In this document: piece after piece, positions 31,202 to 51,463 of the stretch
How positions within the stretch are numbered: position 1 is the first letter of the stretch
How the letters are laid out: the number at the start of each line of letters is the position of its first letter
DNA from: a virus
Lineage: Duplodnaviria > Caudoviricetes
DNA: 64,000 bases
IMG/VR virus record: IMGVR_UViG_3300028833_000066
Reading direction: 5' to 3' (one strand)
Made by a program: the position numbers and the translations under genes
The notes under the pieces: model-generated
Databases searched by the model: none
Seen by the model: the letters and a program-made list of their open reading frames with translations, nothing else
Told to the model about the DNA's origin: nothing

Positions 31202-31225
31202 ATAACCAAAGAAGGAGGGAGGCGT

Positions 31226-32835: not shown

Positions 32836-33076
32836 AAAATTTTTATAAATTTGTAAAAATTTGGCTGCCGGCAAATATTTGACTTGTGTCAAACACTTGA
32901 CAAAAATAGTTAGTTAGTCATAACTAACTCCTAAAAAATTTTTTTATTTGGGGCTTGACAACTTGACACGAATGTGATATAATGGTAGAGGTGGGAGAGT
33001 ATCTGGCGGCGCCGGCAGAATTTTGTGCCGGCATGATTTTTATGTCGGCAAAGAAAAAAAGGGTAGTTTCCTACCC

Positions 33077-33316
33077 TTATTCGCGATAGTCATCATAGAT
33101 TTCAATACTGTAAGGAATAGCCACAACTTCATGTGCGTCTACATCATGAGCACAACATCCTTGAGTAATTTCAATGTCTTCATTGAAAGCAAAGTTTCTT
33201 CCAATAATCAAGGGATGCTTTTGCTTGTGCATAAAATTTACCAATTCTTCAACGGTAGAGAAATTCTTTATTCCCATGTAGTAATCAGAAGAGGTGCGAG
33301 TGAGAACAAATTTCAT
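33077..33316 (-). CDS. Hypothetical early protein
   Basis: Own promoter, RBS and terminator; IEIYDDYRE C-terminus. Confidence 0.7.
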   Translation of the reverse strand: MKFVLTRTSSDYYMGIKNFSTVEELVNFMHKQKHPLIIGRNFAFNEDIEITQGCCAHDVDAHEVVAIPYSIEIYDDYRE

Positions 33317-33478
33317 AATGAATCCTTTCTGGTTTTAAGGACTGTCCTTGTCCTCTTTCATCTTTTATTATATTCATTTTATTTTATTTGTCAATACCTT
33401 TTTGAAAAAATTTTATGCCGGCACGAAAAAAGGGTAGTTTCCTACCCTTATGGTTCAACTTCAATATCATAGGCACTA

Positions 33479-33733
33479 TTAACAAATCTCTTTTTCATTT
33501 TTATACCATTTGTTTGTATCTGCGTAAGAAGGAAGTTTGTCAATATGGGTTATACGATTACAGGCGAGAGGAGGACATTCCATCATTTCATGAGCACGCC
33601 ATTCTGTGATTCGTGTGCCTTGAATGATAGGAGTATCATTTTTGAAATAGATAGTACCTACGCCTGTAACGGTTACGCGAACATAAGAGGGATGTTTTTC
33701 GTAGGCTTCAATTTGCTTGCGGATTTTATTCAT
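33479..33733 (-). CDS. Hypothetical early protein
   Basis: Own promoter and RBS. Confidence 0.6.
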   Translation of the reverse strand: MNKIRKQIEAYEKHPSYVRVTVTGVGTIYFKNDTPIIQGTRITEWRAHEMMECPPLACNRITHIDKLPSYADTNKWYKNEKEIC

Positions 33734-33857
33734 ATGATTGCTCCTTTCGGTTTGTGAGGTTTCCTTCCTCTTTCATCTTCTATTATACTCACTTTATTTT
33801 ATTTGTCAATACCTTTTTTGAAATTTTTGCCGGCGTAAAAAGGGCAGTTTTCTACCC

Positions 33858-34010
33858 TTACAGAATCACCATTTCACCATTCTGGTCTTTAACGCACTGG
33901 ATAAAGGCACCCGCCATGATGAGTTCATTCTGACGCTTGCGTGCTTCTTCAATGGTTGCGGCACGAGCAAAGTCCATGCGGTTATTGAGAATATAATAGA
34001 TTGTGTACAT
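33858..34010 (-). CDS. Small early protein (50 aa)
   Basis: AAGGAG RBS; MYTIYYILNNRMDF... Confidence 0.55.
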   Translation of the reverse strand: MYTIYYILNNRMDFARAATIEEARKRQNELIMAGAFIQCVKDQNGEMVIL

Positions 34011-34037
34011 TTTTTATTTCTCCTTTCTAACAACTGA

Positions 34038-34247
34038 TTAGAAACCTAAGATAAATGAAAGTTTTAAGGGAAAAGAAGTATTACAATCTGGACACTTGAT
34101 ATAATAATCAATATGATTGCGTGTATCTTTTTTCCAATGAATTTGCGGATCATCTGCGGTAAATTCAAAGACACACCCACACGCACATTTGATTGTGCAA
34201 ATTTTGACAAGATTATTTTGTTTTTTACCATGCTGAAGGATTTTCAT
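34038..34247 (-). CDS. Zinc-ribbon protein
   Basis: CACGC..CPDC. Confidence 0.65.
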   Translation of the reverse strand: MKILQHGKKQNNLVKICTIKCACGCVFEFTADDPQIHWKKDTRNHIDYYIKCPDCNTSFPLKLSFILGF

Positions 34248-34270
34248 TTTATTTCTCCTTTCTGATTAGG

Positions 34271-34489
34271 TTAATCGCCAACGATTGCTTCTGTCAAATC
34301 CATCCAATCATCATAACGTTCAAGAATCTTAACGTCTGTGGGTTCAAATACGCCTCCGCAACAACCACAAATTACGTTCGTGATAGTTTCACCATCGCCA
34401 CCAATGATAGCAATGCCACCGAAGATGTTGGTTTCACCTTCATTGATGAAGTCAGGATTGATGACTTCAAATTTTACTTGCTGATACAT
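34271..34489 (-). CDS. Hypothetical early protein
   Basis: VICGCCGGVFE; own promoter. Confidence 0.7.
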   Translation of the reverse strand: MYQQVKFEVINPDFINEGETNIFGGIAIIGGDGETITNVICGCCGGVFEPTDVKILERYDDWMDLTEAIVGD

Positions 34490-34622
34490 ATGTACATTCC
34501 TTTCTGGTTTAGAGTTTTCCTTCTCTTGATTACAATTAGATTATACCATAAATTTTAAGAATGTCAAGTGTTTTTTTGAAAAATGTGCCGGCCAAAGAGT
34601 TAGATAAATCTAACTCTTTTTA

Positions 34623-34904
34623 TTATAGCAATGCGGCAATAGCATTATCTACCGCTTCTTTATATCTTTCACCCAGACGAGCCGCTACAGCCTTGATAAG
34701 TTTGAGCGAAGTTGCGGGGTCGCTGAGAAAAGTTTCAATGGCATAGTCATCGCTATAATATACATGAAGATCTTCATGAAGATTACGCAAGAATTTACTG
34801 TCCCACGGGTTATAAATATCATTCTGTTCAAGCAAGTTCTCAACAATAGTGTCAATGTCGTCAGGCGTGATGGTCAGGGTGACAGTCTTGGTGATATTTT
34901 CCAT
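34623..34904 (-). CDS. Hypothetical early protein
   Basis: Own promoter and RBS. Confidence 0.65.
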   Translation of the reverse strand: MENITKTVTLTITPDDIDTIVENLLEQNDIYNPWDSKFLRNLHEDLHVYYSDDYAIETFLSDPATSLKLIKAVAARLGERYKEAVDNAIAALL

Positions 34905-35077
34905 TGTTTTGTCCTTTCTGGTGTTAAGGATTTTCCTTTCCTTTTTACAAGTAAATTATACCACAGATTAGAAAAAAGTCAAGAGTTTTTTGAGTTAGCG
35001 GCAACTAAATTTTATGCCGGCCAAGTTAGTCATAACTAACTTGCGGCAAAAAGAAAAGAGGGCCGAAGCCCTCTGCC

Positions 35078-35413
35078 TCACGCGAGGCGGTAGGTGTTGG
35101 GCTTGCCCTCAATCTTGACGATGCGATCAGCCCAGTTGTGGGTCAGACCGTACTGGATCTTACCCTTGGTGAAACCCTCAGGCAGATTAGCCTCAACCTG
35201 CTCGAAGATCTCCGCCACGGTCAGCGGGGCAGTCGTGAGGGCGAAGACACCGCGGACGATGTCCCACGCGGTCTCATAGCCCGCGTCCTTCTCGGCCTTG
35301 GCGACTGCACCCTTATTCAGTTCGGCTTCGAGTTCGGTCTTGATTTCGTCAATATTGGTCACGGTCTCACCATTGAGGAAGGAAACGAGAGACTTGATGG
35401 TGGCAATACGCAT
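35078..35413 (-). CDS. Winged-HTH-like early protein, paralog A1
   Basis: LTVAEIFE..FTKGKIQYGLTHNWADRIVKIEGKPNTY. Confidence 0.75.
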   Translation of the reverse strand: MRIATIKSLVSFLNGETVTNIDEIKTELEAELNKGAVAKAEKDAGYETAWDIVRGVFALTTAPLTVAEIFEQVEANLPEGFTKGKIQYGLTHNWADRIVKIEGKPNTYRLA

Positions 35414-35620
35414 AGTAGATACCCTTTCTGGTTTTTGAGACTGTCCTTGTCTTTTCATTTATATTCTACCACATTTCGTGGAGAATGTCAAGCATTTTTT
35501 AGGAAGTTGCGGAAGGTTTAACAGTCCCAATTACGCATTACCGCCCAACTAATGCCACCGCTTACATCCTTATTATAGCACAGGATTTGCTGTTTGTCAA
35601 GGGCTTTTTGAAGATTTTTT

Positions 35621-35775
35621 GTTTCAAGGTTTGCTACTTGTGGGCTCGAACTACTCTTACGCCATTTCCAATTACCAACCGAAGGAGTAGCAGAGAGAGG
35701 AGAACCAAGTTGAACGGTATTGTAGGTTTGACTGGGCGTCACCATCACCAGATGGAGCACTCTCTCCCTTGGAAC
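35621..35775 (-). ncRNA. Candidate small RNA with paired ends
   Basis: Promoter 35782-35809; 5' GUUCCAAGG pairs with 3' CCUUGAAAC; no convincing ORF. Confidence 0.4.
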
Positions 35776-35884
35776 AATTATATTATATCATAATTTGCCA
35801 GAAAGTCAATTACAAAAGTGTTAAGATTTTATTACAATTATATTAACAGGCCGGCTCAGTTAGATACAACTAACATAAGAGCAA

Positions 35885-35991
35885 AGAGAAGGGGAGGAAT
35901 CGAACCTCCCTTGGTTTACCACAACCTACGGCGAATCGAACGCCCTACGACACCTTTCGGGTATCTGCTGTTACCAGTGAGCCACTTCTCT
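35885..35991 (-). ncRNA. tRNA-like RNA with acceptor stem, D-like arm and two T-loops, but no canonical anticodon arm
   Basis: AGAGAAG/CTTCTCT stem; TGGCTCACTGGTAACAGC; GGCG-TTCGATT-CGCC; GGGAGG-TTCGATT-CCTCCC; promoter at 36150-36177. Confidence 0.65.
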
Positions 35992-36238
35992 TTTAATTGT
36001 GAAGAATTTTGGCTGTCCCTCGGGTGCCTTGTATCATTCTTCACAGTTCCGTATAGGGACTTGCAAGTGAGGTTGTCTGTGAGGATGCCTTACCCCGAAT
36101 GACTTATCAGGGGCCTCGTTCCGTTTTCCTCTCCCCTTGGAACAATTACATTATACCGCAATTTTGAGAATTGTCAAGTGGTTTTGAAAAAAAAGATTGC
36201 TAAGTTTTTAACAACCCGTGACCGGCAAAAAAGTTAGA

Positions 36239-36454
36239 TTACTCTAACTCTTCTTCTTCCTCTTTATAATATTTTTGATTGTCCTCAAAGCACTCTTTTG
36301 CGAAAAAGCAAATACCATGATGGTTGAGATAACAATGGGCACAATGATGATTATTTTGGATACATTTAGCAAGGTATTCATTTAATACTTTTATTGTTAA
36401 TTCCTCTTTATATATGGCTTCGATTTGTCGCTGTAACTGTTTTTCATTCATCAT
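36239..36454 (-). CDS. Small Cys/His-rich protein
   Basis: CAHCYLNHHGICFFAKEC. Confidence 0.55.
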   Translation of the reverse strand: MMNEKQLQRQIEAIYKEELTIKVLNEYLAKCIQNNHHCAHCYLNHHGICFFAKECFEDNQKYYKEEEEELE

Positions 36455-36728
36455 CACTATTATCCTCCATCGTATCTTCATATCCGTATACATCGCCTGC
36501 CCACCGAATTTCATCTTCTGCAAAATCCGTAGGGGCATCGGGGTCAACATCATCTGCGGCGAGCCAATCTTCCCAACTCTCCCAGAATGCACCCCAGTCA
36601 TCGCAATCTTCCATCGGGTCATCAATGTGACAAATACCCATCTGGTCGCAGTAGGGGCAATCGCCATAGGCATTCACGGGGCAGTAGGTATAGTCGCCAT
36701 TGTAGGTTCCCTTTTTCACATCACGCAT
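36444..36728 (-). CDS. Acidic Cys-rich protein
   Basis: CPVNAYGDCPYCD..CHIDDPMEDCDD; GGAGG RBS. Confidence 0.65.
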   Translation of the reverse strand: MRDVKKGTYNGDYTYCPVNAYGDCPYCDQMGICHIDDPMEDCDDWGAFWESWEDWLAADDVDPDAPTDFAEDEIRWAGDVYGYEDTMEDNSDDE

Positions 36729-36903
36729 TTTTCTTTTCCTCCATTTTCATTTTATGATTTCTCCAAATTTTAGCATAGAAGACTACTTTTTCAGGATATT
36801 GTATTTTTGAAAAACCTTCACAAACCTGATAGAAAGTATCAACATAGATAGCATGGCAATGCTTACAGAGAAACTTGATGATCGTATTTATAATGGTGGT
36901 CAT
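36721..36903 (-). CDS. Hypothetical early protein
   Basis: AAGGAGG RBS; promoter 36926-36954. Confidence 0.55.
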   Translation of the reverse strand: MTTIINTIIKFLCKHCHAIYVDTFYQVCEGFSKIQYPEKVVFYAKIWRNHKMKMEEKKNA

Positions 36904-37094
36904 TGTTCTTCCTCCTTTACGCTCTCATTATAGCATTGTTTATACCATTTGTCAAGAGTTTTTCTTGCGGTTTTACGAAGTTTTTTCTTTAAGCGACGAC
37001 GTGCGGGAGTGCTTTGATCTATCCATTGACGACACCCTGTATTCAAATCCCAAGCTGCAAGTTCATCATGATATTTATGCTCGTTCTTACGCAT
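36900..37094 (-). CDS. Basic hypothetical protein
   Basis: AAGGAGG RBS; promoter 37117-37146. Confidence 0.55.
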   Translation of the reverse strand: MRKNEHKYHDELAAWDLNTGCRQWIDQSTPARRRLKKKLRKTARKTLDKWYKQCYNESVKEEEQ

Positions 37095-37168
37095 TTATTA
37101 TCCCTCCTTACATGCCTATTATAGCATACATAGGAAAGTTAGTCAAGCCTAATTTTTTCGCCGGCACC

Positions 37169-37444
37169 TTAACGGCTATAATTAAGGATGTCACGACCTT
37201 CCTTAAAGTCATAGATAGAAATCATAGTGCAGTCTTTGTCATATAGATAGATAGCGGCGGCTTGAAGTAAAGCAATAATATCGTCACCGCATTCACTCTT
37301 ACCGTTCTGGCCGTATACCGTAATCATTTGATACCGATGCTTCTTATCACGAAGCTGCTGACGCAAAGAATCATTTTCAAGACGTAACTGGTCAAGTTCC
37401 TCTTCCAATTCGCTAATACGCAGGCTCATTTCAAATTCATCCAT
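37169..37444 (-). CDS. Coiled-coil early protein
   Basis: Own promoter and RBS. Confidence 0.65.
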   Translation of the reverse strand: MDEFEMSLRISELEEELDQLRLENDSLRQQLRDKKHRYQMITVYGQNGKSECGDDIIALLQAAAIYLYDKDCTMISIYDFKEGRDILNYSR

Positions 37445-37542
37445 CGTGATTCCTCCTTAGTTATTTCTTCTTACAGTTTGATTATATCATAAAGTAGACA
37501 GTTAGTCAAGACTAATTTTCTTGCCGGCGGCAAATGGGAACA

Positions 37543-37746
37543 TTAGTTCCCATTCGCACGACTGACAGAAAGGTCTACCAGTTCATAAGAACGCTCAATA
37601 TCAAACCGACAGCCGCATTTATCACAACGACATGACCACCACTGTGCGGCACCATCCAGTCCGCTAAAATCATCACCGTAATCTTCAATGGTATAATCTT
37701 CCGAACCACACACGGGGCAAGCCTCTTTGTCAAAATTTTTACGCAT
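37543..37746 (-). CDS. Zinc-ribbon protein
   Basis: CPVC...CDKC. Confidence 0.65.
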   Translation of the reverse strand: MRKNFDKEACPVCGSEDYTIEDYGDDFSGLDGAAQWWSCRCDKCGCRFDIERSYELVDLSVSRANGN

Positions 37747-38131
37747 TTTCCTGTGCCTCCTTTTCCTTTTCCTTGGCTTCACGCTTAGCCTTGTCGCGGG
37801 CGATCTTCTCTTCCTTTGCCTTGACCTTTTCGGCTTTCTCAGCCTGCTTGGTGTTGTAAGCATTGATTTCGTTCTGCATCAGTTCGCGGGCAGTCATGTC
37901 TTCGCGTTCCTCTGCTACGATGACGCCTACGCGGCAATAGCGTTCGACGCCATTTTTATCGGTCAGAATGCAACCCCACTGTCTATCATTGATTCTGCGA
38001 TACTCTGCATTATCTGTCCAAAAGGCATTGGGTTTAACACCATTAACAGAAGCAGAGTCCAGGTCAAAAATTTCAGTGAAGATACGGTCACGGAGGTCAG
38101 CATCAACAACAGTCTTCGCAATCTTCGCCAT
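37739..38131 (-). CDS. Early protein with Lys/Ala/Glu-rich tail, paralog B1
   Basis: KAEKVKAKEEKIARDKAKR; similar to 44245-44619. Confidence 0.7.
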   Translation of the reverse strand: MAKIAKTVVDADLRDRIFTEIFDLDSASVNGVKPNAFWTDNAEYRRINDRQWGCILTDKNGVERYCRVGVIVAEEREDMTARELMQNEINAYNTKQAEKAEKVKAKEEKIARDKAKREAKEKEKEAQENA

Positions 38132-38435
38132 AGAGATTCTCCTTTCGGTTTGTAGGGTGTCCTTCCCTTGATTACAGTTAGATTATATCACACATTTTGA
38201 TTATTGTCAAGAGATTTTTCAGAAGTTTCTGAAAATTTTTGTGTCCTCTCCGCATAAGCCAACCCTCTGGGGTGCTTATGCACGTGCGTTTCTTTACCGC
38301 CCCACCGAAGATTTCTTCGGGATGGTCGTCACATCCTCTTGACATTATTGATTATACCTGATGCCAAGACTTTTGTCAAGTAGTTTGTGCGATTTTCTTT
38401 TGTTAAGTTTTTCACAAGCGGGGCCGGCATAATAG

Positions 38436-38888
38436 TTAGTTATGACTAAACAACTGTGCTTCAAAGTCACGGGCAAGTTTGCGGTGTTCATAGGTGGCAA
38501 GCCAATTAATAGCCCATTCAGTGGCTATATATTCAGAAGGAATGTCAAAGTATACACTGAAAGCCGCGTCACGCTTAATCTCGTCATCCTCAATCCAATC
38601 AATTTCTTTGCGGGTTGCCCAATGTCCTAACTCGTGGAGGATAGCAAGAGTAATGTCAGAGAAATTATTTGCGAGAGGACAACGATTGACAAAATCTTCA
38701 CGAAATGCAACGTCCTCTTCTTCGGGTATGTAATTAATAACAGAGGGCACAAGCAAACGCGGGTTTGGCTTGTTATTAATATCCATTCCCCAATTATTGC
38801 TCATTCGCTTGCGTGCGATTGTTACGCGGTCGCCAATGGCCTTGCTTGCAAACTCGCGGATTAATTGAATCTGCATCATCTTTATCAC
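38436..38888 (-). CDS. HExxH metallopeptidase-like protein
   Basis: ILHELGHW...E..A..WA. Confidence 0.65.
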   Translation of the reverse strand: MIKMMQIQLIREFASKAIGDRVTIARKRMSNNWGMDINNKPNPRLLVPSVINYIPEEEDVAFREDFVNRCPLANNFSDITLAILHELGHWATRKEIDWIEDDEIKRDAAFSVYFDIPSEYIATEWAINWLATYEHRKLARDFEAQLFSHN

Positions 38889-38953
38889 TCCTTACACCCG
38901 TATTATATCACGCACAATAGAGTTAGTCAAGTATAACTTTGCCGGCGGCTGTC

Positions 38954-39205
38954 TCAACCCGCATAGAGTTGAGACAGAAAGTAGAGGTTGAGGACAATGC
39001 TGGAAAAATGAAGCAAGAAGTCATTTACATGGCGGTTCTGGTTAGTAAAGTCCTTAAAGATACCAATAAGAGCAATGCCAAGGCCGAACCAAGCAGAGCC
39101 GAAACCGCAAGTGATGATGAGAACAACATTGAGAACCATGCCCGCAGCACGCAAGTCCTGCCATTCAAGTTTATAAGGGGCATAAAGATTAAAGAACTTA
39201 CGCAT
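38954..39205 (-). CDS. Small membrane protein
   Basis: Hydrophobic segments; own promoter. Confidence 0.6.
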   Translation of the reverse strand: MRKFFNLYAPYKLEWQDLRAAGMVLNVVLIITCGFGSAWFGLGIALIGIFKDFTNQNRHVNDFLLHFSSIVLNLYFLSQLYAG

Positions 39206-39519
39206 CTGGATTTCCCCTTCCCTTTTGTTCATCTATATTATATACTAATTTTTGATTTTTGTCAAGAGTCAATTTTGAAGTCCGCCACTCAATCGGGGCT
39301 ACCCGCTCATCCTCTTGCAGTGGGGTTCTCTTCCTCTTGACATCTTGATTATAGCATATAATGTGAGGTTAGTCAAGCCTAATTTTTATGCCGGCGACAG
39401 TTAGTTATGACTAAATAACTATTATGATAAAAAAAGAAAACCACCCCGAAGGGTGGCAAGGATGGGTTATTTCTCACCAATTACGCGACGCCAGAGATAG
39501 TGGCAACCTTGCGGGAGGC

Positions 39520-39852
39520 TTACGCCTTCCGATAGGCGTTGACCTTACCCTCAACCTTGACGACCTCGCCCGCCCACTGGTGGGTCAGAGCGTAGGACAG
39601 CTTGGACTTGGTGAAGTCCTCGGGAACCTCACCCTCGATGGCTTCCCACAGTTCAGCCACAGTCAGCGGAGCCTCAGTCAGCCCAAACTGAGCGAACACG
39701 ATGGGCTTAGCGGCTTCGTAGATTGCGGCCTTAGCAACCTTTACCGCATCGCCGCGATGAATTTCGCGGTTCAGTTCGTCCATAACCTCGGCGTTGTCGT
39801 AGTTGTAGTTGGTCAGAGCAGTGTAGATGGCATTCAGAGTAGCATTCTTCAT
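39520..39852 (-). CDS. Winged-HTH-like early protein, paralog A2
   Basis: LTVAELWE..FTKSKLSYALTHQWAGEVVKVEGKVNAY. Confidence 0.75.
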   Translation of the reverse strand: MKNATLNAIYTALTNYNYDNAEVMDELNREIHRGDAVKVAKAAIYEAAKPIVFAQFGLTEAPLTVAELWEAIEGEVPEDFTKSKLSYALTHQWAGEVVKVEGKVNAYRKA

Positions 39853-40334
39853 AGGGCAATTTCCTTTCTGGTTTTTAAGTGTTTTCCTTCACTTGATGTC
39901 TTTATTATATCATGGATTTGGGAGTTTGTCAAGGGGTTTCGCAAACTTTTTTCGCCCATTATGTTTGCTGGTGGCCAAATGTTTCTGTTTCCATGCGTTT
40001 TGTCTCTGTTGACTTTCGGCAACCACCTTGACTTGTCAGTGTGACTCCCTCACCTGACAATATTAATTATACTCTAATTTTGATTTTTGTCAAGCATTTT
40101 TTGAAAATTTCTTTGATAAATTTTTGACAATTGATGGTTATGTAGTCATAACTAACCGCCGCGCCGGCACGAAAAAAGGGTAATTAGATACCCTTCTTTA
40201 CAGAATCCTACACCAGAAAGCCGCGAGAAGAAGCCCCAAAAAGTAGTGAAGAATTATAGGTTTATCATCTTTGCGGCAAGCATTAGCGGTATATACTATC
40301 CAGACAAGAGTAAGCACGATGGCAATTGCAATTT

Positions 40335-40778
40335 TCATTTTATTACTCCTTTCAGTACGCGGATGATTTCGTTAGGGGTGAAAGCGCCATCGCCCCATGC
40401 CTTGCGGTTCGGTTCCTCATCATCGAATAGGATGCCACCACCGCAAGCGGTGCGCTTGTCAGTACCATAGCGGACAATCTTGATTTCGTCCCATTCCACA
40501 GAAGGCAGATGCTTATGAAGCCATACCATTTTAGCAAGGGCAATCTCGCCATTGTAGAGATCAGAGCCACCACGGGAAGTCCACGAGATGATACCGATTT
40601 CATAACCATTCGCCTGTACCCTGTGAAGAAGCCGAGCGAGATATGCCATATTCACAAGGGGCTTCGCGATGTCGTAGGGACGAGTATCTTCATTGATAAG
40701 ATTTTCAAGCCACCCTTCCACGCCGTAGAGGTCAGCAATCGTTCCGTCCATGTCGAACCAAATAGTCATTTCTGACAC
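40335..40778 (-). CDS. HAD-superfamily 5'(3')-nucleotidase-like protein, paralog C1
   Basis: IWFDMDGTIADLY...ILFDDE. Confidence 0.8.
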   Translation of the reverse strand: MSEMTIWFDMDGTIADLYGVEGWLENLINEDTRPYDIAKPLVNMAYLARLLHRVQANGYEIGIISWTSRGGSDLYNGEIALAKMVWLHKHLPSVEWDEIKIVRYGTDKRTACGGGILFDDEEPNRKAWGDGAFTPNEIIRVLKGVIK

Positions 40779-41059
40779 CTTCCTTTCTTGGTGTAATTAT
40801 ATTATACTCTATTTTTAGATTTTGTCAAGGGGTTTTAAGAAAGAATTTTGATTACGCATCTTTCTTCTTTCCGAACGTGGGCAATTTGATAAAGCCAAAT
40901 GCGAATAATTTGACTCAATTTCAGTTCGCGGATTGTCTGCTGTCCTTTGCAATTACGGAGATAAACTTTCATTCTTGGCACCTTCCTTTCATCCTTATTA
41001 TATCATATTGGTAGTAGTTAGTCAAGCCTAACTTTTCTGCCGGCGCCGAGGCGGCAGGC

Positions 41060-43359: not shown

Positions 43360-43450
43360 TGCCTCCTTCTTGGTACATTTTGATTATATCATAGTCAAAG
43401 CATTTTGTCAAGAGGAAATTTTCGGCTGGCCAAAAAGGATGCGTAATTTT

Positions 43451-44104
43451 TTACGCATCCCAGTTGAGACAAGTGGCATAAATGCGGGCTTCAATTTCAG
43501 TATCGCCAACGCCAGTATGCTCCTCCTCAAAATCAGTATTTTGAGTAAGGAATCTCCAAATTGCTTCCGCTGTTGCTCGCGGTCTCGGGATGGCGTGGTT
43601 GGTCATCAAACCATTTTCTTTACAAAAGGTTATATATTCATCAGTTTTACAAATGGTATTTCGTGCCAGTTTCATGGTATCAATTACAGGCATATTGTAC
43701 GGGATGAAATAACGTTTTTTGCTTTTAGTTTGATAACGCATAGTAGCATTGAGTACTCGAATATCGAAAGACGCATTGTGAGCGATGATAGCTTCAACAT
43801 GCCACTTGTCGCACAAGTCTCGGAAAATCTTATACATTCCCCAACTATCCGTGACTGTATATTTTTTGTCCCAAATGTCCCGCCAATACTGCGGAATCTT
43901 ATCCGCAAAATAAGCATCTTTCATCGTCTCGGGCATAGAGATGAAAACATCACGATTGATCACGGGCACAACTTCAAGGGTCTTGCCCTCGTCATTAATG
44001 ACGCGGAAGCAAGCGTCATAAACCTGCCCATCATCTGAAAATAGTTTACCATTAATTTTATAAGTGTTTGCGGTTTCAGTGTCCACGACCATTTTATTGC
44101 CCAT
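43451..44104 (-). CDS. DEDDh 3'-5' exonuclease, paralog D2
   Basis: VDTET; AHNASFD; HTGVGD; shares TMRYQTKSK.RYF with D1. Confidence 0.8.
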   Translation of the reverse strand: MGNKMVVDTETANTYKINGKLFSDDGQVYDACFRVINDEGKTLEVVPVINRDVFISMPETMKDAYFADKIPQYWRDIWDKKYTVTDSWGMYKIFRDLCDKWHVEAIIAHNASFDIRVLNATMRYQTKSKKRYFIPYNMPVIDTMKLARNTICKTDEYITFCKENGLMTNHAIPRPRATAEAIWRFLTQNTDFEEEHTGVGDTEIEARIYATCLNWDA

Positions 44105-44244
44105 TTTAGAAAGCCTTTCTGGTTTGGGAGGTGTCCTTCCTCTTTTCAATGATGATTGTATCATATTTGTGCGAGTTTGTCAAGCCTAACTTTTTGGCCG
44201 GCGAGGTTAGTTATGACTAACTATTATATATAAAAAAATGGGGA

Positions 44245-44619
44245 TTACTCCCCATCCTTTTCGGCCTTCTTCGCGGCCTTTTCGGCACGCCGCTTGGCGT
44301 CAGCCGCGATCTTCGCGGCTTTCTTTTCCTCGGCGACCTTGTGCTTCTCGGCCTTTTCGGCACATTCGCGAGCGTAGCCATCCGCGGCGGCGTAGCCATC
44401 GTAGGCATTGTAGCCACCTTTACCGTTTCGAGTACCGCGAGGAGTAGAAACTTTTACCACAATCCACGCATCATCGCCCTCAGCGTCAACGCAAGGCAGG
44501 GCAATTTCATTGGAACTCACGCGGAGGACTTCTTCATCAGACAGAAGCCCGATGAACTTGTCAAGGAAGGAAGCACGGAGAGCGGATTCGATAGCAGTCT
44601 TAGTCATAGCCATAAGCAT
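44245..44619 (-). CDS. Early protein with Lys/Ala/Glu-rich tail, paralog B2
   Basis: KAEKHKVAEEKKAAKIAADAKRR. Confidence 0.7.
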   Translation of the reverse strand: MLMAMTKTAIESALRASFLDKFIGLLSDEEVLRVSSNEIALPCVDAEGDDAWIVVKVSTPRGTRNGKGGYNAYDGYAAADGYARECAEKAEKHKVAEEKKAAKIAADAKRRAEKAAKKAEKDGE

Positions 44620-44894
44620 TTCCTTTCTGGTTTTTAAGAGTTTCCTTCTCTTATGTCTTGATTATACTACAGAGTGGAGGTTTTGTCAAGAGGAATTTTT
44701 TATCATCGTGAGGAGGTGTCCCTCATCCTCTTGACAATTATTATTATACTCAAAATTTGATTTTTGTCAAGTATTTTTTTCTATGAATATTTATAAATTT
44801 TTTGTATAATTATGCACTGCCGGCACGAAAGTTAGTAATGACTAAATAACTATTGTATGCGTCAAAAGAAAAAAGACCCCGAAGGGTCTTTTAC

Positions 44895-45227
44895 TCACCG
44901 CAGGCGATACACATTACCGCCCTTGGTCTGCTCAACGCTCACAGCATCGTTCCAGTAGTGCAGGAGAGCATACTGTACCTTACCCTTGGTCATGCCATTG
45001 GGCAGAGTATCGCCACAGCTCTCCATCAGCTCCGACAGCGTAGCTCCATCAGTAGCCAGCTTCAGCTGTCCAAGCACCAGCTCGCGGGCCGATTCATACA
45101 GCTCCCGATTCGCAGCAGCCTTCTCGGCATTGCGATTCAGCTCCCGCATCAGCTCCGCACGGGCATCCGCCATCTCAGGCACGTTCTCAAGGAAGGAAAC
45201 AAGGGACTGCATAGTGGTCTTCTTCAT
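44895..45227 (-). CDS. Winged-HTH-like early protein, paralog A4
   Basis: ATLSELME..MTKGKVQYALLHYWND. Confidence 0.75.
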   Translation of the reverse strand: MKKTTMQSLVSFLENVPEMADARAELMRELNRNAEKAAANRELYESARELVLGQLKLATDGATLSELMESCGDTLPNGMTKGKVQYALLHYWNDAVSVEQTKGGNVYRLR

Positions 45228-45620
45228 AGTGATATCCTTTCTGGTTTTTAGGACTTTTCCTTGTCCTCTTTACATCTTGATTATACCACAGTTTTGAGGT
45301 CTTGTCAAGTGTTTTTTGAAACTTTTTTTTCGTTTGCGGCAAGATTTCCGTGGCCTTTGGAATCTTGGGAGAGCAGTCCATCTTGCCGCATTCTTTCGGG
45401 TGGTGCCCCTCTGTCCTCCCGACACTTTATATTATACTCGGATTTAGGTTTCTGTCAAGTGTTTTTCGCAAAAAGTTTTGTAAAGTTTTTAACAATGTTG
45501 TTAGTTAGTTATAGCTAACTCGGCCGCCGGCAAAAGAGTTAGTTTCAGCTAACTCTCGTAATTATGCCGGCAGAAAAGTTAGTCGCAGCTAACTTTGCCG
45601 ATAAAAAAACTGACAGCGGC

Positions 45621-46070
45621 TTACGCCACCGCCAGCCCCGCCAGCGTCTTTTCGTTGGTCAGTTCAGCTCCGTCAAACTTGATTTGGAGCTCCCGCCCGT
45701 TCAGGCTCAGGTCTCCGGCCACCCAGAAGGGAACGCTATCCTTGACCCAGTGCTGACCAGCCAGCTCGGTGATGATCCGCTCAAAGTTCTCGCCCTTGTT
45801 GTGGTGGGTGTCAGCTTCCAGATCCTCGGCCTTGCCGATGATCTTGGCCAGCCCCTTGGCAATCAGGGCCAGCTTGTCAGCTTTCGCGACGCGGATGCGA
45901 ATCTTGGCCATGCCGCCCCGCTTGCTGGAAGCGTGGTCCAGCTTCAGCACGGCGTCAGGCAGCTCGGGCAGCTCGGCGGCGAACAGTTCGCCGTGGTGGA
46001 CAAAGCCGAGGACATAAGCATCAGCGGCAGAATGGGCTTCGTAGGTGTTCAGCATCTCTTCGCGGGTCAT
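45621..46070 (-). CDS. Early protein, paralog E1 (possible PD-(D/E)XK-like fold)
   Basis: NKGENFE..PFWVAGDL..QIKFDGA; AGGGAGG RBS. Confidence 0.7.
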   Translation of the reverse strand: MTREEMLNTYEAHSAADAYVLGFVHHGELFAAELPELPDAVLKLDHASSKRGGMAKIRIRVAKADKLALIAKGLAKIIGKAEDLEADTHHNKGENFERIITELAGQHWVKDSVPFWVAGDLSLNGRELQIKFDGAELTNEKTLAGLAVA

Positions 46071-46595
46071 CGTGGTGGCCTCCCTTGCTTTCATCTTACA
46101 AGTAGATTATACAGTGCCGGACCGATTTTGTCAAGAGGTTTTTTGAAAAAAGTTATTACATTTCTGTTAAGATTTTATAGACTTTTCGTAATACTTTTGT
46201 AATAGTTTCGTGCTTTAACGTGTTAAAGCGGAGATACCTCGGCAGGTGAGGTATCCCACGGTGGAGGTACTTCGGCAGGTGAGGTATTGCCGGCAAAGTA
46301 GTTAGTGACAACTAATCTGGTTAGTCATAACTAACTCTTATAATACTTATTTAGTCATAACTAACTCCGCGAAAATAGTTAGTTAGTTATAACTAACTTA
46401 AAAAATCGCACCCTCGCCGTGGGTCCGACCGGTTCTCCGCTCCTCTGGTTATAGTATAGCACACTATGGAAAAATGTCAAGAGGTTTTCAAAAATTTTTT
46501 GAAAAAATTTTGCCGGCAAGATTTTGAAAAAAGTGCTTGACAAGTCCGGACAAGTATGTTATAATCAAGATGTAAAGAGAAGCAAGGAGGAAGAA

Positions 46596-46760
46596 ATGAT
46601 GAAGAGTTTCGAGGTTGAAATTAGCTGGGTAGAGGCTCATGGTTTCCGTTATGTGGTGAAGGATGGCAAGCTGTATTGGCAGACCGCGATTCAGACCGCG
46701 GAGATGGACGAGGATGGTCATATTGTATGGCATGAAAAAGAATATTTTAATCTTCTGTAA
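46596..46760 (+). CDS. Small early protein
   Basis: Promoter 46537-46565; AAGGAGG RBS. Confidence 0.65.
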   Translation: MMKSFEVEISWVEAHGFRYVVKDGKLYWQTAIQTAEMDEDGHIVWHEKEYFNLL

Positions 46761-46832
46761 AACCTCTTGACAAAACATTGACCGTCTGTTATAATCAAGA
46801 TGTACCAAAGAGATAGAAAGGAAGTAGGAACA

Positions 46833-47048
46833 ATGTACAAAACTACTTGGATTATCAGTGATGAAAGTGACGAGGGTATCTATCAGACAGAATTGACCTT
46901 GTATCATTTCGGAAAAACTCCCAAATTTCCCAGTTGGTACATGGAAGAAAATCACTCTTACGTGATTGAAATGGTTTGGAATTTCAAATTGATTGTTCGT
47001 CCTTCAATCTTCTTTAAGTGCCTGACCCATCAATACATTATCAAGTAA
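46833..47048 (+). CDS. Small early protein
   Basis: Promoter 46768-46795; RBS. Confidence 0.55.
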   Translation: MYKTTWIISDESDEGIYQTELTLYHFGKTPKFPSWYMEENHSYVIEMVWNFKLIVRPSIFFKCLTHQYIIK

Positions 47049-47124
47049 AAAAGTACTTGACAAATCCGGCAACCTGTGCTATACTTAGATCGTACCAAGG
47101 GAAGAACAAAAGGAGGATCACAAA

Positions 47125-47433
47125 ATGATCACCATGCGTCATCTGCTGACCCTGAAAGAAAACGACGGCATGACCCTGAAAAACGGCGAGATGATCACTT
47201 ATAAAAGCGGCTGGCAAGTAGCCACCGAAGGCGTGGAATGTGTAAGTCCGAAGGATGCCATGCGTGCGATTAAGCAGTATAACGGCACTTGCGGCGTGTG
47301 GTACGCTGGCGGTATCTACTACATTGACAAAAGCCACCGCGTGAGCACGAAACGTGAGGCCATGGAGATCGGCCGCAAGTGCAAGCAGATTTCCGTCCTG
47401 CGCTGGCATGATATGGGACTTGTCTACTGCTGA
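47125..47433 (+). CDS. Hypothetical early protein
   Basis: AAGGAGG RBS; own promoter. Confidence 0.75.
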   Translation: MITMRHLLTLKENDGMTLKNGEMITYKSGWQVATEGVECVSPKDAMRAIKQYNGTCGVWYAGGIYYIDKSHRVSTKREAMEIGRKCKQISVLRWHDMGLVYC

Positions 47434-47551
47434 GCAGTAGGCCGGAAAAATTTCTTTGAAAAAGTTTTGAAAAAGTGCTTGACAAATAATCGGGAATATG
47501 TTAATATATAGTCACCGGGAGGGACCCCGGAAGATAAAGGAGGAAACGAAA

Positions 47552-47719
47552 ATGACTCACATCAACAACCTGCCCCACACCTTCCGCGCTTGGATTGTCG
47601 CCCGTGAGGTTGATGGCGAGCTGTGGTTCTGGGGGTCTTGGGACTCCCGCGAGGCCGCGCAGGCCGCGGCGTGGGATATCGGCGGCGTGGTCGTGTCCCG
47701 CGACTGGGTGGAGGCCTGA
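47552..47719 (+). CDS. Small early protein, paralog F1
   Basis: WIVAREVDGELWFWGSW. Confidence 0.7.
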   Translation: MTHINNLPHTFRAWIVAREVDGELWFWGSWDSREAAQAAAWDIGGVVVSRDWVEA

Positions 47720-47913
47720 GCCTCCACCCCGGCACCGGATCCACCGGCGCCGTTTTTTATGCCGGCACAAAAGTTAGTTATGACTAACTGATTCGGATCG
47801 GCGGTTAGTTATAACTAACCGGAGTATGTTGCCCTGGCGCTCGGCTGAAAAAAGTTTTTAAAAAACTTTCAAAAACCTCTTGACAAACCCGCGAAAGTGT
47901 GGTAAGATTAAGA

Positions 47914-48022
47914 TGTACCAAGGGAAGAGAGAAGAAGAAAACAACCTCTCCCAAGCGCATAACTTGGTGAAGTAAAATCAAAACTCTCTACCAAACAGAC
48001 GAAACTTTCTTCCCTTGGTACA
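47914..48022 (+). ncRNA. Candidate sRNA closed by a perfect 15-bp terminal stem
   Basis: Promoter 47880-47908; TGTACCAAGGGAAGA...TCTTCCCTTGGTACA; no ORF. Confidence 0.55.
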
Positions 48023-48094
48023 CAAAAACCTCTTGACAAACCGGCCGCAATGCGCTATAATAAGACTGTAAAGAGAAGCAAGGAGGAAACACAA

Positions 48095-48271
48095 ATGCTG
48101 AACACCGAAGAAATCCGCAACGTCCCGACCTACGCCTACGGCCATCCCTATTGGGTGGTGCGCGAGGCGGACGGCGAGTACTGGTTCTATGGCGCGTATG
48201 ACACGCTCGCCCGCGCTCGCGAGGTGGCCGCGATGGTGGACGGCCTCCCCGTGGAGAACCCCGCGGCCTGA
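48095..48271 (+). CDS. Small early protein, paralog F2
   Basis: WVVREADGEYWFYGAY. Confidence 0.7.
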   Translation: MLNTEEIRNVPTYAYGHPYWVVREADGEYWFYGAYDTLARAREVAAMVDGLPVENPAA

Positions 48272-48529
48272 CCCGCCGCGGGTCTTTTTTTGCCCGGATC
48301 GCCGGCATGAAAAAAGTTTGGAAAAATTGCAAAAAGGGCTTGACAGACTTGACATATCATGCTATAATAAGGATGGTGGAGGAGGGCCCAACTATATAAG
48401 TTAGTCATAACTAACTAAATTGCCGGCGAAAAAGTTTGCGGAAAATGAAAAAACCTCTTGACAATTCCGGCAAGATATGCTAATATATAGTCACAGGGAG
48501 GAACCCTGGAAGATAAGGAGGAACGCAAG

Positions 48530-48691
48530 ATGCTGACTGAAAATTCTGGAAAGTACGAAATCCTTGGTTATCTCGTGGAAAATGGCTTTGACCTCGGTGA
48601 CATGACAATGGATGAATGGGCTACGGCCTACACCATGGAGGAACTGTGGGGCATCGTCCAGTATATGCTCGGGCAGGTGGAGGACTGGTAA
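48530..48691 (+). CDS. Small acidic early protein (53 aa)
   Basis: AAGGAGG RBS; promoter 48458-48485. Confidence 0.6.
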   Translation: MLTENSGKYEILGYLVENGFDLGDMTMDEWATAYTMEELWGIVQYMLGQVEDW

Positions 48692-48764
48692 GTCCTTCGC
48701 AATCTCGAAAAAAAGTACTTGACAAAATACACCTTATCCTGTATAATTAAGATGTAGAAAGGAA

Positions 48765-49202
48765 GTGCTCACAATGACGATCTGGTTCGACATGGATGGC
48801 ACAATCGCTGACCTGTATGGTGTGAACAACTGGCTTGACTATCTGCTTGCCCACGATGCTACACCTTACAAGGTTGCAAAGCCTCTTGTCAATATGAACG
48901 TGCTTGCTCGCAAGCTGAACGCTTTACGTAAGCAAGGTTACAAGGTTGGTATCATCTCTTGGCTGAGCAAAAACAGCACTGCCGAATATGACAACGCCGT
49001 GACCTTGGCAAAGCGTGCTTGGCTGGCTGAGCACTTGGCAAGCGTGGCCTTTGATGAGATCCGCATCGTCTCCTATGGTGTGAATAAATGGCAAGCCTGC
49101 GGTGAAGGAATCTTATTCGACGATGAAGAGAAAAACCGCAAGGATTGGAAAAACGACGCCTTTGAACCTTGCCACATTATGGAAGTCTTGAAGAGCCTGT
49201 GA
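48765..49202 (+). CDS. HAD-superfamily nucleotidase-like protein, paralog C2
   Basis: IWFDMDGTIADLYGV...ILFDDE. Confidence 0.8.
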   Translation: MLTMTIWFDMDGTIADLYGVNNWLDYLLAHDATPYKVAKPLVNMNVLARKLNALRKQGYKVGIISWLSKNSTAEYDNAVTLAKRAWLAEHLASVAFDEIRIVSYGVNKWQACGEGILFDDEEKNRKDWKNDAFEPCHIMEVLKSL

Positions 49203-49791
49203 CAAGGTTCTTTTTTTATAATAGTACGGTTAGTCATAACTAACTCGCTTGCCGGCATTAAAAAAGAGTAACCACTACATGGTTACTCTTTTGCCTTGTC
49301 ATTGGCAAGGGCAAGGGCAAACGCCTGCATGATGAAGCCGATCACAACACCTATAAGCCACCAATCACACCGAGACAGATAGCACATAAGCCCGCAAATA
49401 GTGCTGAGGAAGACGCCGAGATAGCCCATCATTTTAGCCCCTTCTTTCCTTTGGTTTCACCTATATTATATCAGAAATTTTGTAAAAGTCAAGTAATAAT
49501 TTTGTAATAGGTGGAGGATTCTGCTCCGAAAAGTCTACCGGCAAATAATAAGAAAAAAGGGCTTGACAAAATCGCCGGCATAATGTATAATAAAGATGCA
49601 CCGGAACGGAGAGACAGGGGAGAGTGAAGACATGAGTTAGTTATAACTAATTACCTTTTCGGCACTGGTGGAGGCTCAAAAAAAATTTTTGAAAAATGAA
49701 AAAGTGCTTGACAAGTCCGGCATTGTGTGCTATACTTTAATCACGGTGGAGGGAGACCGAAGCCGAATAGAAAGAAAAGGGGACTTCAAAA

Positions 49792-50010
49792 ATGACTATC
49801 CGCGAATACTTCGACACTATCTATGCCACCGAGGATTTTGAGGACGCCGCCGACTATGAGCGGACTATCTACCACTGCATGGAAGAGGACTTCGACGACT
49901 TCACTATGTGGGCAGTGGAAAACGGCATTGACCTGACCGCCACCACTGAAATCATGGGCGAAACCGTGCCCGTGTTGCTCGCGTGGGCGTGGGATATGTG
50001 CGAAGAGTGA
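49792..50010 (+). CDS. Highly acidic small early protein (possible DNA mimic)
   Basis: D/E-rich 72 aa; own promoter. Confidence 0.65.
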   Translation: MTIREYFDTIYATEDFEDAADYERTIYHCMEEDFDDFTMWAVENGIDLTATTEIMGETVPVLLAWAWDMCEE

Positions 50011-50256
50011 AAACCCTTCGCCTTTTCTTTTTTTGTAAAAAGTGCTTGACAAGTCTGCCGGTCTGTGCTATACTATCATCAGAGGAAGGGAAAACGCTTC
50101 GGACCAACGGCGGACCTGCCCATTTTTATTTTTGACTATCTTTGATCTTTGTGGACTATGGGCAAAAACTTTTTTCGTAAAAATGCAAAAAAGGGCTTGA
50201 CAAGTTTACCGGCAAGGTGTATAATCAGGGTGAAGATAAGGAAAGGGGACATCACC

Positions 50257-50709
50257 ATGATGAACACTCTGCTGACCGCCTACAACAAGCTGACTGCCGC
50301 CACCATCTACTTTATCGGCTTCGTCCTCTCCGGCACCGTCTACGGTGGCTATTTCACCGAAATTCCCACCGCCGCCCTGAAACTTGACCACGAAAGCACC
50401 GCCCGCGGCGGCGCGGCGAAAATCCGCATTCGCTTTAATAAGGACTTAAAGCTTGCCCTCAAGGCACAAGGCAAAGTCAAAGCCCTTGCCACCATCGAAG
50501 CACTTGCCGCCGACCCCCGTTATAACAAAGGCGACAACTTTGAGAAGCTGATTGCTGAACTGAACGGCATTCAGTGGGCGAAAAACTCTGACCCCTTTTG
50601 GGTCGCTGGAGACCTTGAAATCAACGGCGAACAGGTACAAGTCAAGTTTGACGGTGCGGAACTGGTGAATGAAAAATCCCTCCGCAAAGCCCTGACGGTT
50701 GCCGCCTGA
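50257..50709 (+). CDS. Early protein, paralog E2
   Basis: NKGDNFE..PFWVAGDL..QVKFDGA. Confidence 0.7.
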   Translation: MMNTLLTAYNKLTAATIYFIGFVLSGTVYGGYFTEIPTAALKLDHESTARGGAAKIRIRFNKDLKLALKAQGKVKALATIEALAADPRYNKGDNFEKLIAELNGIQWAKNSDPFWVAGDLEINGEQVQVKFDGAELVNEKSLRKALTVAA

Positions 50710-50843
50710 GTGGCAACCTTCTTTTTTTATTTTTTCATAATAGTTACTTAGTTATCACTAACTCGCTCGACTTTAATGCTTTAATGCAATGAAGTGGAGG
50801 AAAACTATTCGCGTCAATTTACACGCTTTAATGCGTTAAAGAG

Positions 50844-50976
50844 TTGTTAAATTTTTAACAATCGCCCCACCCTCATGTTTTCTTCAATACTTTAATGCAT
50901 TAAAGTGGGTCTGCGGCAGAATACTTATTTAGTTATAACTAACTCGCTCGATGCTATATTGTTAAATTTTTAACAA
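50844..50976. promoter_or_regulatory. Two perfect Rex-like operators (TTGTTAA-N4-TTAACAA)
   Basis: 50844-50861 and 50959-50976; degenerate copies at 36197, 38400, 40113, 43170 and 45478. Confidence 0.6.
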
Positions 50977-51463
50977 GCGGCCCACCTTTATGGTTTAGCA
51001 CTTTAATGTGTTAAAGTGGAGGCACCTGTAACACTTTTGTAACAAATTAAAATCCTGCTTAGTCGGCCGGTATCGTTATAAATCCATAATATTTGAAAGG
51101 TGGAGGGTGGTTCTTGTTCGCGTTTTATTTTTCAAAATAAGCATACCCCCGCCCGCGGAAAAGGATTTATAATTGTTACACCCCACAGTGAAATTTTGTA
51201 ACATTTTTGTAACAAATTCGGACCTACCCTAGCTTCCAGGTGCTAGCTTCCAGCATTTTCCAGACCCCGGGGGCTAGCTTTCGGGATTTTTTGAAAAGTT
51301 AGTCTAGACTAACTAGGGGCGTGCCCAAATTCCACCAACTTTTTTAAAAAATAACTTAAACCACCAACTTTTAAAAATAACCTTCAAAACTAATACTCAA
51401 ACACTTGACAATGCCAAGCCCGATATGTTATAATTTAATCAAGGCAAAGAGGTGTTGAAACAA

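Follow-up and report, generated by a model that had tools for sequence, protein, structure and literature searches.

Operators for host regulators have been described on phages as single cases, and dispersed sets of sites have been described for repressors that the phages themselves own. The tox promoter of corynephage beta is controlled by the host DtxR through a phage-borne operator, and the virulent Bacillus phage phi29 carries Spo0A boxes in its early promoters and origins, for which, to our knowledge, no titration role has been proposed. In lysogens of mycobacteriophage L5 and of phiC31, the repressor that occupies the stoperators or the conserved inverted repeats is encoded by the phage itself. 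In Bacillota, operators of the MntR/ScaR/SloR/PsaR type are palindromes over the -35 or -10 of metal-transporter promoters, on which dimers often sit two side by side. Titration is known from Escherichia coli, where many high-affinity sites compete for a limited protein both at datA (for DnaA) and in the Fur titration assay. T4-type phages carry PeSL cassettes, small early genes with their own strong promoter and terminator and with repeated regulatory modules at the junctions. Here, the element in question is the palindromic box AGTTAG-N6-CTAACT, which occurs 32 times in an early gene island (positions 32912-51314) of the Caudoviricetes phage IMGVR_UViG_3300028833_000066, within an analysed stretch of 64,000 nucleotides (the window), and which most likely represents the operator of a putative host metal-dependent repressor.

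As in the case of corynephage beta tox, the proposed operator of a host DtxR-family repressor is borne by a phage that lacks a repressor of that family. Whereas tox comprises one operator and one gene on a temperate phage, there are 32 boxes here (17-80 in relatives), they lie in the early region of a large phage without an integrase, most of them are not placed to repress, and the box has a 6-bp core in contrast to the 19-bp DtxR/IdeR box. The canonical DtxR/IdeR box (TTAGGTTAGCCTAACCTAA) shares the GTTAG/CTAAC arms but separates them by one base instead of 6 bp. The likeness to the MntR/ScaR/SloR/PsaR-type operators lies in a palindromic box over a promoter and in the regulator beside the bacterial boxes, which is most MntR-like, although no described sequence matching AGTTAG-N6-CTAACT was found among operators of this type. 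The phi29 system also places several sites for a host master regulator in the early region, with host physiology gating phage development, but it has a handful of sites, another regulator, and no tandem arrays. In L5 and phiC31, as here, 20-30 sites are spread across intergenic spaces, some over promoters and many not; here, in contrast, the sequence is that of a host-regulon operator and no integrase is present. The resemblance to PeSLs consists of early single-gene cassettes with junction modules, though PeSLs are without a host-operator palindrome. Competition for a limited DNA-binding protein is common to datA, the Fur assay, and repeated decoy sites in yeast (PMC3322331), all of which are chromosomal or artificial. 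The operator Oc of DicA has the identical inner 16 bp and is likewise a palindromic homodimer site, but DicA, encoded by a proteobacterial prophage, belongs to the XRE type, whereas the Bacillota context of the present box points to a DtxR-family protein (PMC3441716). This DicA paper was also the only one returned by a literature text search for the box string, and the literature searched offered no precedent for MntR boxes on phage DNA or for a phage that naturally carries an array of decoy sites for a host metalloregulator. Tens of copies of a putative host-metalloregulator operator, expanded into arrays and kept across a phage clade, were likewise absent from that literature.

Conservation and Confinement of the Box

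Exact copies of AGTTAG-N6-CTAACT number 12 in the window, every one of them within 32912-51314, and none arose in 100 shuffles. When up to two mismatches are allowed, the window contains 41 matches against 2.7 expected, 36 of which fall inside the island; merging matches offset by 4 nt leaves 32 distinct boxes there. The original prediction, made from the window alone, had spoken of more than 20 copies confined to the island, and both parts of that statement are borne out. The complete phage genome is a 179,585-bp IMG/VR record (complete according to CheckV), of which the window is the reverse of positions 1-63975, and a motif scan of the whole record at one mismatch or fewer places 30 of 31 boxes at 32.9-51.3 kb of the window, compared with a single match for the reversed-pattern control. 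In an unbiased tally of exact-arm palindromes, the AGTTAG/CTAACT family is the sole strongly enriched one in the island.

The box is an inverted repeat with conserved arms and a free core, as suits a homodimer. Information content reaches 1.3-2.0 bits per position in the arms and 0.6-1.4 bits in the core, and falls to about 0.1 bits in the flanks. Since conservation is limited to the box, recent duplication of some longer repeat does not explain the copies, and the pattern indicates that the arms are under selection. The core sequences listed in the original prediction are correct, and to these can be added cores such as TCAAGC; read on the opposite strand as GCTTGA, they supply TTGACT as the -35 of minus-strand promoters. 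An RNA hairpin was considered and ruled out, as the arms are kept in sequence and not just in complementarity, and the -35-type cores are not self-complementary. A general promoter element was likewise ruled out, as the box occurs in only 6 of about 45 consensus promoters.

None of the 32 boxes lies within a called gene, and two (36232 and 38434) overlap a stop codon, in agreement with the essentially intergenic placement first reported. In an island that is 61% coding, 32 non-coding boxes out of 32 correspond to P ~8e-14, although part of this bias is forced, given that the arms hold TAG and TAA and close two of the three frames on each strand.

The Box in Bacterial Genomes

An exact 18-mer scan of 185,579 bacterial and archaeal genomes returned at least 120 bacterial loci, which among the matches listed belong mostly to Bacillota (Lachnospiraceae, Oscillospiraceae, Erysipelotrichaceae, Anaeroplasma, and Clostridium). 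Of the boxes in these listed matches, 114 of 121 lie outside open reading frames (ORFs) of at least 100 aa, and a gene starts within 250 bp of 112. Two control palindromes, both taken from a gene-free stretch of the phage island and passed through the same pipeline, lie outside such ORFs in 80 of 123 and 55 of 67 cases (inside in 43 and 12). The ORFs that flank the listed boxes (n = 148) most often encode FeoA (11), FeoB (8), ABC exporters (8), DtxR-family proteins (7), and DUF3793 proteins (7), followed by ZIP (5), DUF2325 (5), flavodoxin (3), and Nramp (2), and no other regulator family is present among the 25 commonest families listed, the rarest of which has two members. FeoA, FeoB, DtxR, ZIP, or DUF3793 adjoins the box in 40 of the 110 listed loci, as opposed to 0 of 93 and 0 of 54 for the controls.

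In seven listed loci, the box is faced by a gene of the DtxR family (PF01325 and PF02742; the family is reviewed in PMC11672702). The bacterial box often directly follows a -10 element, for example in two divergent dtxR-feoA pairs (L105 and L137), in which it lies between the repressor gene and feoA. The nearest solved structures to the box-adjoining regulator are MntR (E 1e-15 to 1e-13), then DtxR, IdeR, SloR, and ScaR. Examples of such MntR-like repressor genes lie at L105:3258-3644, L137:1846-2217, and L150:6067-6438. Because the box stands beside metal uptake genes and the repressor's own gene (40 of 110 loci, against 0 of 147 controls), it is most likely a host metal-repressor operator, namely that of a putative MntR-like, DtxR-family metal-dependent repressor of ferrous-iron and other metal uptake in anaerobic Bacillota. 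The original prediction had likened the box to DtxR/MntR sites, pointed to the regions upstream of feo and mnt genes in candidate host genomes, and suggested a sponge for a host metal regulator. Boxes do occur upstream of feoA/feoB, ZIP, Nramp, and an MntR-like gene, and the host-regulator part of the suggestion is backed by this gene context, while the sponge is still something that we infer.

Whole bacterial genomes of 2.5-4.3 Mb contain 5-23 box matches when scanned as stringently as the phage (reversed control, 2-13). Two culturable species, Clostridium sporogenes and Mediterraneibacter hominis, are among the box-bearing bacteria. Massilicoli timonensis has about 12 boxes over 47 kb (L217-L219; G003:C4:1920000-1975000), near genes for ABC exporters, AraC-type and TetR regulators, and Trep_Strep proteins, and this stretch looks like a box-controlled island of the host repressor that is probably transport-related. 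The possibility that the box clusters in the bacterial genomes G003 and G002 are prophages was ruled out, as they have zero proteins in common with the phage; the genes beside them include those for ABC exporters and for regulators of the AraC type, and in one such regulator a periplasmic binding domain is fused on.

Boxes in Related Phages

The exact 18-mer AGTTAGTYATRACTAACT is found in 88 stretches of IMG/VR contigs, many of them 130-182 kb long, and 40 of these 88 viral loci have at least five boxes. Whole related records hold 17, 25, 35, 51, and 80 boxes, against 0 for the reversed control, and in the two complete relatives for which positions were listed, both of them with terminal repeats, every box falls within a single region of about 20 kb. 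Relatives of about 170-180 kb keep the same island-confined boxes. The fusion of a box to the -35 element recurs in relatives, and some relatives have expanded the box into arrays: about 38 boxes stand head to tail in L066, mostly 20 bp apart (some 25), with no consensus promoter within the array; L084 has 39 matches at one mismatch or fewer in 1.6 kb (register-shifted duplicates included); and the array of L018 has a period of about 45 bp. Box spacings in relatives peak at 19-20 and 31-34 bp, which corresponds to two or three helical turns. A clade of large stop-codon-recoded gut and rumen phages carries tens of copies of a putative host metalloregulator operator, up to tandem arrays.

No DtxR-family protein is encoded in the phage genome, in which the best PF01325 score is 12.6 bits (below the cut-off) and PF02742 has no match, or in the 88 related viral loci. 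As the phage and its relatives are without a DtxR-family gene, the natural binder of the boxes would be the host repressor.

Two further repeats were observed in L066 (IMGVR_UViG_3300037400_003374). Four perfect DnaA boxes (TGTGGATAA) form a direct repeat at L066:4842-4915, flanked on one side by the array (about 38 boxes) and on the other by the promoter of a P1-family gene (the family is described below), and AAAGTCAAAG repeats within the array region.

Placement of the Boxes in the Island

The island and the boxes built into promoters, with their upstream partners, are as follows (strand given where one is assigned).
32912-51314: early island with all boxes; about 38 small genes, AGGAG ribosome sites, G+C 0.41-0.49
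37137-37154, minus: box over -35 (centre -34), in the TTGACT-17-TATAAT promoter of a 64-aa gene (36900-37094)
37500-37517, minus: box over -35 (centre -34), promoter of a 91-aa gene (37169-37444)
38921-38938, minus: box over -35 (centre -34), promoter of a 147-aa gene (38436-38879)
39367-39384, minus: box over -35 (centre -34), promoter without an ORF behind it
39399-39416: upstream partner box (centre -66), 32 bp from the box at 39367, directly past a terminator hairpin
41016-41033, minus: box over -35 (centre -34), promoter of a 45-aa gene (40835-40972)
44174-44191, minus: box over -35 (centre -34), promoter of a 217-aa gene (43451-44104; phrog_20187)
44205-44222: upstream partner box (centre -66), 31 bp from the box at 44174

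These six boxes read GCTTGA in the core on the gene strand, which places TTGACT-17-TATAAT in register, so that each box is centred at -34 over the -35 hexamer. The partner boxes at 39399 and 44205 are fully palindromic. The other boxes stand singly at junctions, in pairs, in clusters, or in a gene-free stack.
32912-32929: junction box at the left island edge
34598-34615: junction box beside GCCGGC
34993-35041: pair (34993 and 35024; spacing 31 bp) that encloses GCCGGC and stands at -54 and -84 relative to the minus-strand promoter 34982
35858-35875: junction box beside GCCGGC
36232-36249: junction box overlapping the stop of gene 36239-36454
38434-38451: junction box overlapping the stop of gene 38436-38879, the stop codon being the TAA of the arm
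42533-42550: junction box between a terminator and GCCGGC
44830-44847: junction box between a terminator and GCCGGC
45503-45594: cluster of three exact boxes (45503, 45537, 45577; spacings 34 and 40), GCCGGC 5 nt from each, just downstream of the P1 gene 45621-46070
46300-46398: cluster of four boxes (46300, 46319, 46349, 46381; spacings 19, 30, and 32) at the divergence point, between the minus-strand promoter 46480 and the minus-strand P1 promoter 46134
47772-47820: pair (47772 and 47803), 31 bp apart, in the plus arm
48399-48416: box centred at about +32, downstream of the plus-strand promoter 48340, with GCCGGC after it
49228-49245: junction box past a T-run, followed by GCCGGC
49635-49652: box about +45 downstream of the plus-strand promoter 49563; a like arrangement occurs in the relative L012 at 5498
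50746-51314: three boxes (50746, 50927, 51297) in the stack, with no called gene and no consensus promoter; Rex-like and HisR-like palindromes are also present

Both clusters, at 45503-45594 and 46300-46398, had been noticed in the original prediction and are real. Neighbouring boxes in this island are spaced by 19, 30-34, or 40 bp. Other boxes fall between a cassette's terminator and the promoter that follows, with their centres at -54 to -104.

The hexamer GCCGGC lies within 5 nt of 22 of the 32 boxes, and 29 of its 32 copies in the window fall in the island (32867-49574). It typically stands right past the terminator T-run and ahead of whichever UP element or box comes next, in many cases at a distance of exactly 5 nt from the box, and it is also found where a terminator is followed by an UP element with no box. 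Among related phage lineages, GCCGGC is limited to some, and some show GGCCGGCC in its place.

Candidate Binders Encoded by the Phage

Two families of island proteins come into question as binders of the box.
35078-35413, minus: winged-helix paralog A (111 aa); siblings at 39520-39852, 42609-42947, and 44895-45227, all minus
45621-46070, minus: P1-family gene (149 aa) between the two box clusters, a candidate for a strongly controlled target or an alternative binder
50257-50709, plus: P1 paralog (150 aa), directly upstream of the gene-free stack

The A family consists of four paralogs of about 110 aa with a predicted C-terminal winged helix (pLDDT 93) and weak matches to MarR, ArsR, and PerR folds. 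The original prediction had named these paralogs as candidates for a repressor acting on the box; the winged-helix fold is supported by the structure prediction, while nothing links the paralogs to the site. P1 has 2526 uncharacterised homologs, and neither P1 nor the A family has a match in Pfam or PHROGs. The invariant P1 residues E97, D120, and Q129-x-K131 follow a PD-(D/E)XK nuclease pattern, and low-score atlas leads include Hjc, PDDEXK_14, and Mrr_cat; a search with the AlphaFold model of P1 (pLDDT 94) by Foldseek or VIA-align gave no match in the PDB. These leads hint that P1 is a divergent PD-(D/E)XK nuclease. The A and P1 families are both present in five of the five relatives tested, and neither a P1 relative nor a prophage copy was found in the bacterial reference genomes.

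The phage also encodes two small XRE helix-turn-helix proteins of 71 and 64 aa, with no box near either gene. Each belongs to a two-gene module of an XRE protein and a 57-aa protein; the two modules are paralogous and both lie outside the island, at 25610-26013 (minus) of the window and at G000:C1:125431-125801 (L093:1438-1808).

Proposed Role of the Boxes and Alternative Explanations

We consider it moderately likely that the boxes are operators of a host MntR-like, DtxR-family repressor, of which a few act as true operators and most as decoys for the host protein. The phage would then probably sense the metal-sensing repressor of its host and may also soak it up. In a metal-replete cell, a metal-loaded dimer of the host repressor would occupy each box. 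At the six early promoters, where the box spans about -43 to -26, the bound repressor would block sigma-A region 4, and these promoters would stay off until metal drops or the repressor is exhausted. The original prediction of a site that silences the whole early island is overstated in this respect, as a box covers the -35 in only 6 of about 45 consensus promoters. The other boxes, about 26 at junctions, in phased pairs and clusters, and in the gene-free stretch, would occlude no promoter and would most likely form a high-capacity sink, a role suggested by how many boxes there are and how they are phased, by arrays in relatives that contain no promoter, and by the gene-free stack. As bacterial genomes have 5-23 matches each, one phage genome would add the sites of several chromosomes or more, and replication would multiply them. 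Repressor would be drawn from the host feoAB, ZIP, Nramp, and flavodoxin promoters, leading to more metal import, and titration by rising genome copies would also free the six phage promoters.

Several points weigh against this proposal. The link between box and repressor rests on genomic context, and the regulator and its regulon are known from box-bearing bacteria that may not include the host of this phage. Most boxes, at -54 to -104, do not occupy a classical repressor position and could be roadblocks or sites of another protein, and the spacing of the arms is unlike that of the canonical DtxR/IdeR 19-mer. The companion GCCGGC is absent beside those bacterial boxes whose flanks were inspected. 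Moreover, the phage encodes four winged-helix paralogs that are candidate DNA binders, and box clusters adjoin P1-family genes in many relatives, an arrangement that an autoregulated phage protein would also produce.

The main rival retains the host repressor and holds that its operators serve as a sensor only, acting in cis to tie early transcription to the metal status of the host, through direct repression at six promoters and through auxiliary, cooperative, or roadblock sites elsewhere, with no meaningful titration of the regulon. Such a role would account for the six boxes built into -35 elements with both arms intact, for partners that lie 31-32 bp upstream in helical phase, as suits cooperative binding, and for the many boxes right after terminators, where a bound protein could halt read-through. 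It is rendered unlikely by arrays of about 38 boxes without a consensus promoter, by the stack at 50.7-51.4 kb, which contains neither a called gene nor a consensus promoter, and by a box count far above that of the six promoters that could be occluded. It has also been considered that a dimeric phage protein, either a winged-helix paralog or P1, binds the boxes as an operator or stoperator network of its own, the match in bacteria being mimicry, in competition with the host repressor, or convergence. The predicted winged helix of the A family, the position of P1 genes immediately next to box clusters in many relatives, which is typical of autoregulated genes, and the occurrence of both families in all five tested relatives are in keeping with this. 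Nevertheless, the 18-mer stays constant while P1 proteins drop to 24-40% identity, as would be more readily expected of a conserved host protein; in bacteria without these phage proteins, a coherent metal regulon is marked by this sequence; and P1 has no recognisable DNA-binding fold. A phage-owned network is considered unlikely, with both families still candidate binders.

An improbable alternative is that P1, or another initiator or organiser of the phage, binds the clustered boxes as iterons of a replication origin or as a partition site resembling a centromere. The clusters do lie at the divergence point and at the minimum of the cumulative GC skew (44-46 kb), in L066 four perfect DnaA boxes separate the array from a P1 gene, and a 20-bp phasing resembles iteron arrays. 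Yet most boxes are single and spread over 18 kb, at cassette junctions and inside promoters, unlike iterons, and the skew minimum falls where the genes change strand. In addition, the window has no perfect DnaA box (31 near-matches against a shuffled mean of 21, with 3 of 100 shuffles reaching 31), and in bacterial metal regulons the box sequence plays a distinct and coherent role. An operator for an XRE/DicA-type repressor is suggested by GTTAGTCATAACTAAC, the core of the E. coli Qin prophage operator Oc, which has been shown genetically to bind DicA (PMC3441716). The inner 16 bp of the box equal this core, as confirmed in the MG1655 sequence, and the phage does have two small XRE proteins. 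Since neither of these aligns with DicA, neither gene has a box nearby, and the 25 families most often beside the Bacillota boxes (among the matches listed) include no XRE protein, this reading is very improbable. Finally, boxes flank many cassettes on both sides in relatives, and the island is a mosaic of paralogous cassettes, as would be expected of a recombination or shuffling site or a cassette boundary of a site-specific recombinase. The original prediction had listed a tyrosine-recombinase core site among its options, but this finds no support: PF00589 and PF00239, for tyrosine and serine recombinases, have no match in the 179.6-kb genome (controls match), conserved arms with a free core are the pattern of a protein operator, and six copies are predicted functional promoter parts. 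Recombination is therefore hardly credible as the function of the box.

On balance, the interpretation put forward in the original prediction is partly supported. If the arrays titrate the repressor, as the decoy reading proposes, host iron or manganese uptake would be reprogrammed by DNA alone, and such DNA-only reprogramming, if true, would be invisible to gene-based searches for auxiliary metabolic genes. The comparative genomics also yields a predicted operator and regulon (feoAB, ZIP, Nramp, flavodoxin, and DUF3793), assigned to an MntR-like repressor that is widespread among anaerobic Bacillota.

Possible Other Host-Type Operators in the Gene-Free Stack

Between 50780 and 51230, the stack contains four CTTTAATG-N2-TTAAAG palindromes, two copies of TTGTTAAATTTTTAACAA, and two TGTAAC-N5-TGTAAC repeats. 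The two control palindromes of the bacterial scan, drawn from this stack, have small coherent contexts of their own. In bacteria, TTGTTAA-N4-TTAACAA (the second type) occurs upstream of genes for thioredoxin-like [2Fe-2S] ferredoxins, as do Clostridia Rex boxes, and ACTTTAATGYRTTAAAGT (the first type) occurs upstream of genes for amino-acid binding proteins and a HisRS-like gene; both signals are weak, with clusters of six. A wider reading, possible if tentative, is that the island is a protein-free device for host takeover. It would carry operators of MntR/DtxR-type and, apparently, of Rex and HisR-like repressors, and replication would soak these repressors up, derepressing metal uptake, redox, and amino-acid regulons and timing some phage promoters.

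The Early Island and Its Surroundings

Genes of the island lie on the minus strand at 33.0-46.1 kb and on the plus strand at 46.5-50.7 kb. About 45 near-perfect TTGACA-17-TATAAT (consensus sigma-70) promoters are present, most of them followed by a terminator, so that cassettes of one gene each are densely packed in this early region. The standard code applies in the island, with no in-frame TAG. Late and replication genes (1-13253 and 31187-32581), in contrast, read TAG as a sense codon: translating TAG as Q opens a frame of 2755 aa at 4989-13253 in which TAG occurs 21 times, and a helicase-like gene (31187-32581) contains it 14 times. Almost no TAG is found among the small genes grouped at 14.9-30.9 kb. 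To the right of the island, the genes are again TAG-recoded (51434-64000), with a sigma-factor-like gene followed by terminase and portal genes. The window encodes no tRNA, hence no suppressor tRNA, and no Rfam family. When 12 kb of the island was compared with cultured phages by megablast, there was no match, and a distant search with the L066 array returned a single unannotated faecal phage contig.

The sigma-factor-like gene (phrog_5767; 51434-52792, plus), which is TAG-recoded, is the first of the late module and lies directly past the island, a position suggesting that transcription passes from sigma-70 promoters of the host type to control by a sigma factor of the phage. Within the island, seven consensus promoters on the minus strand (38379, 39376, 40093, 43150, 44770, 45458, and 46480) have no ORF behind them and are followed by leaders of 60-120 nt that start alike (GTCARGAGGA...). 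These leaders may form a family of small RNAs, for which Rfam holds no match.

Paralogous cassettes make up the island as a mosaic. Two phrog_20187 paralogs are encoded at 41060-41776 (minus) and 43451-44104 (minus), the latter weakly similar to DNA polymerase exonuclease subunits. NT5C-like (HAD) deoxyribonucleotidase paralogs occur once in each arm, at 40335-40769 (minus) and 48774-49202 (plus), and the NT5C-like protein is the one most widely common to the other box-bearing viral loci (33-34 loci).

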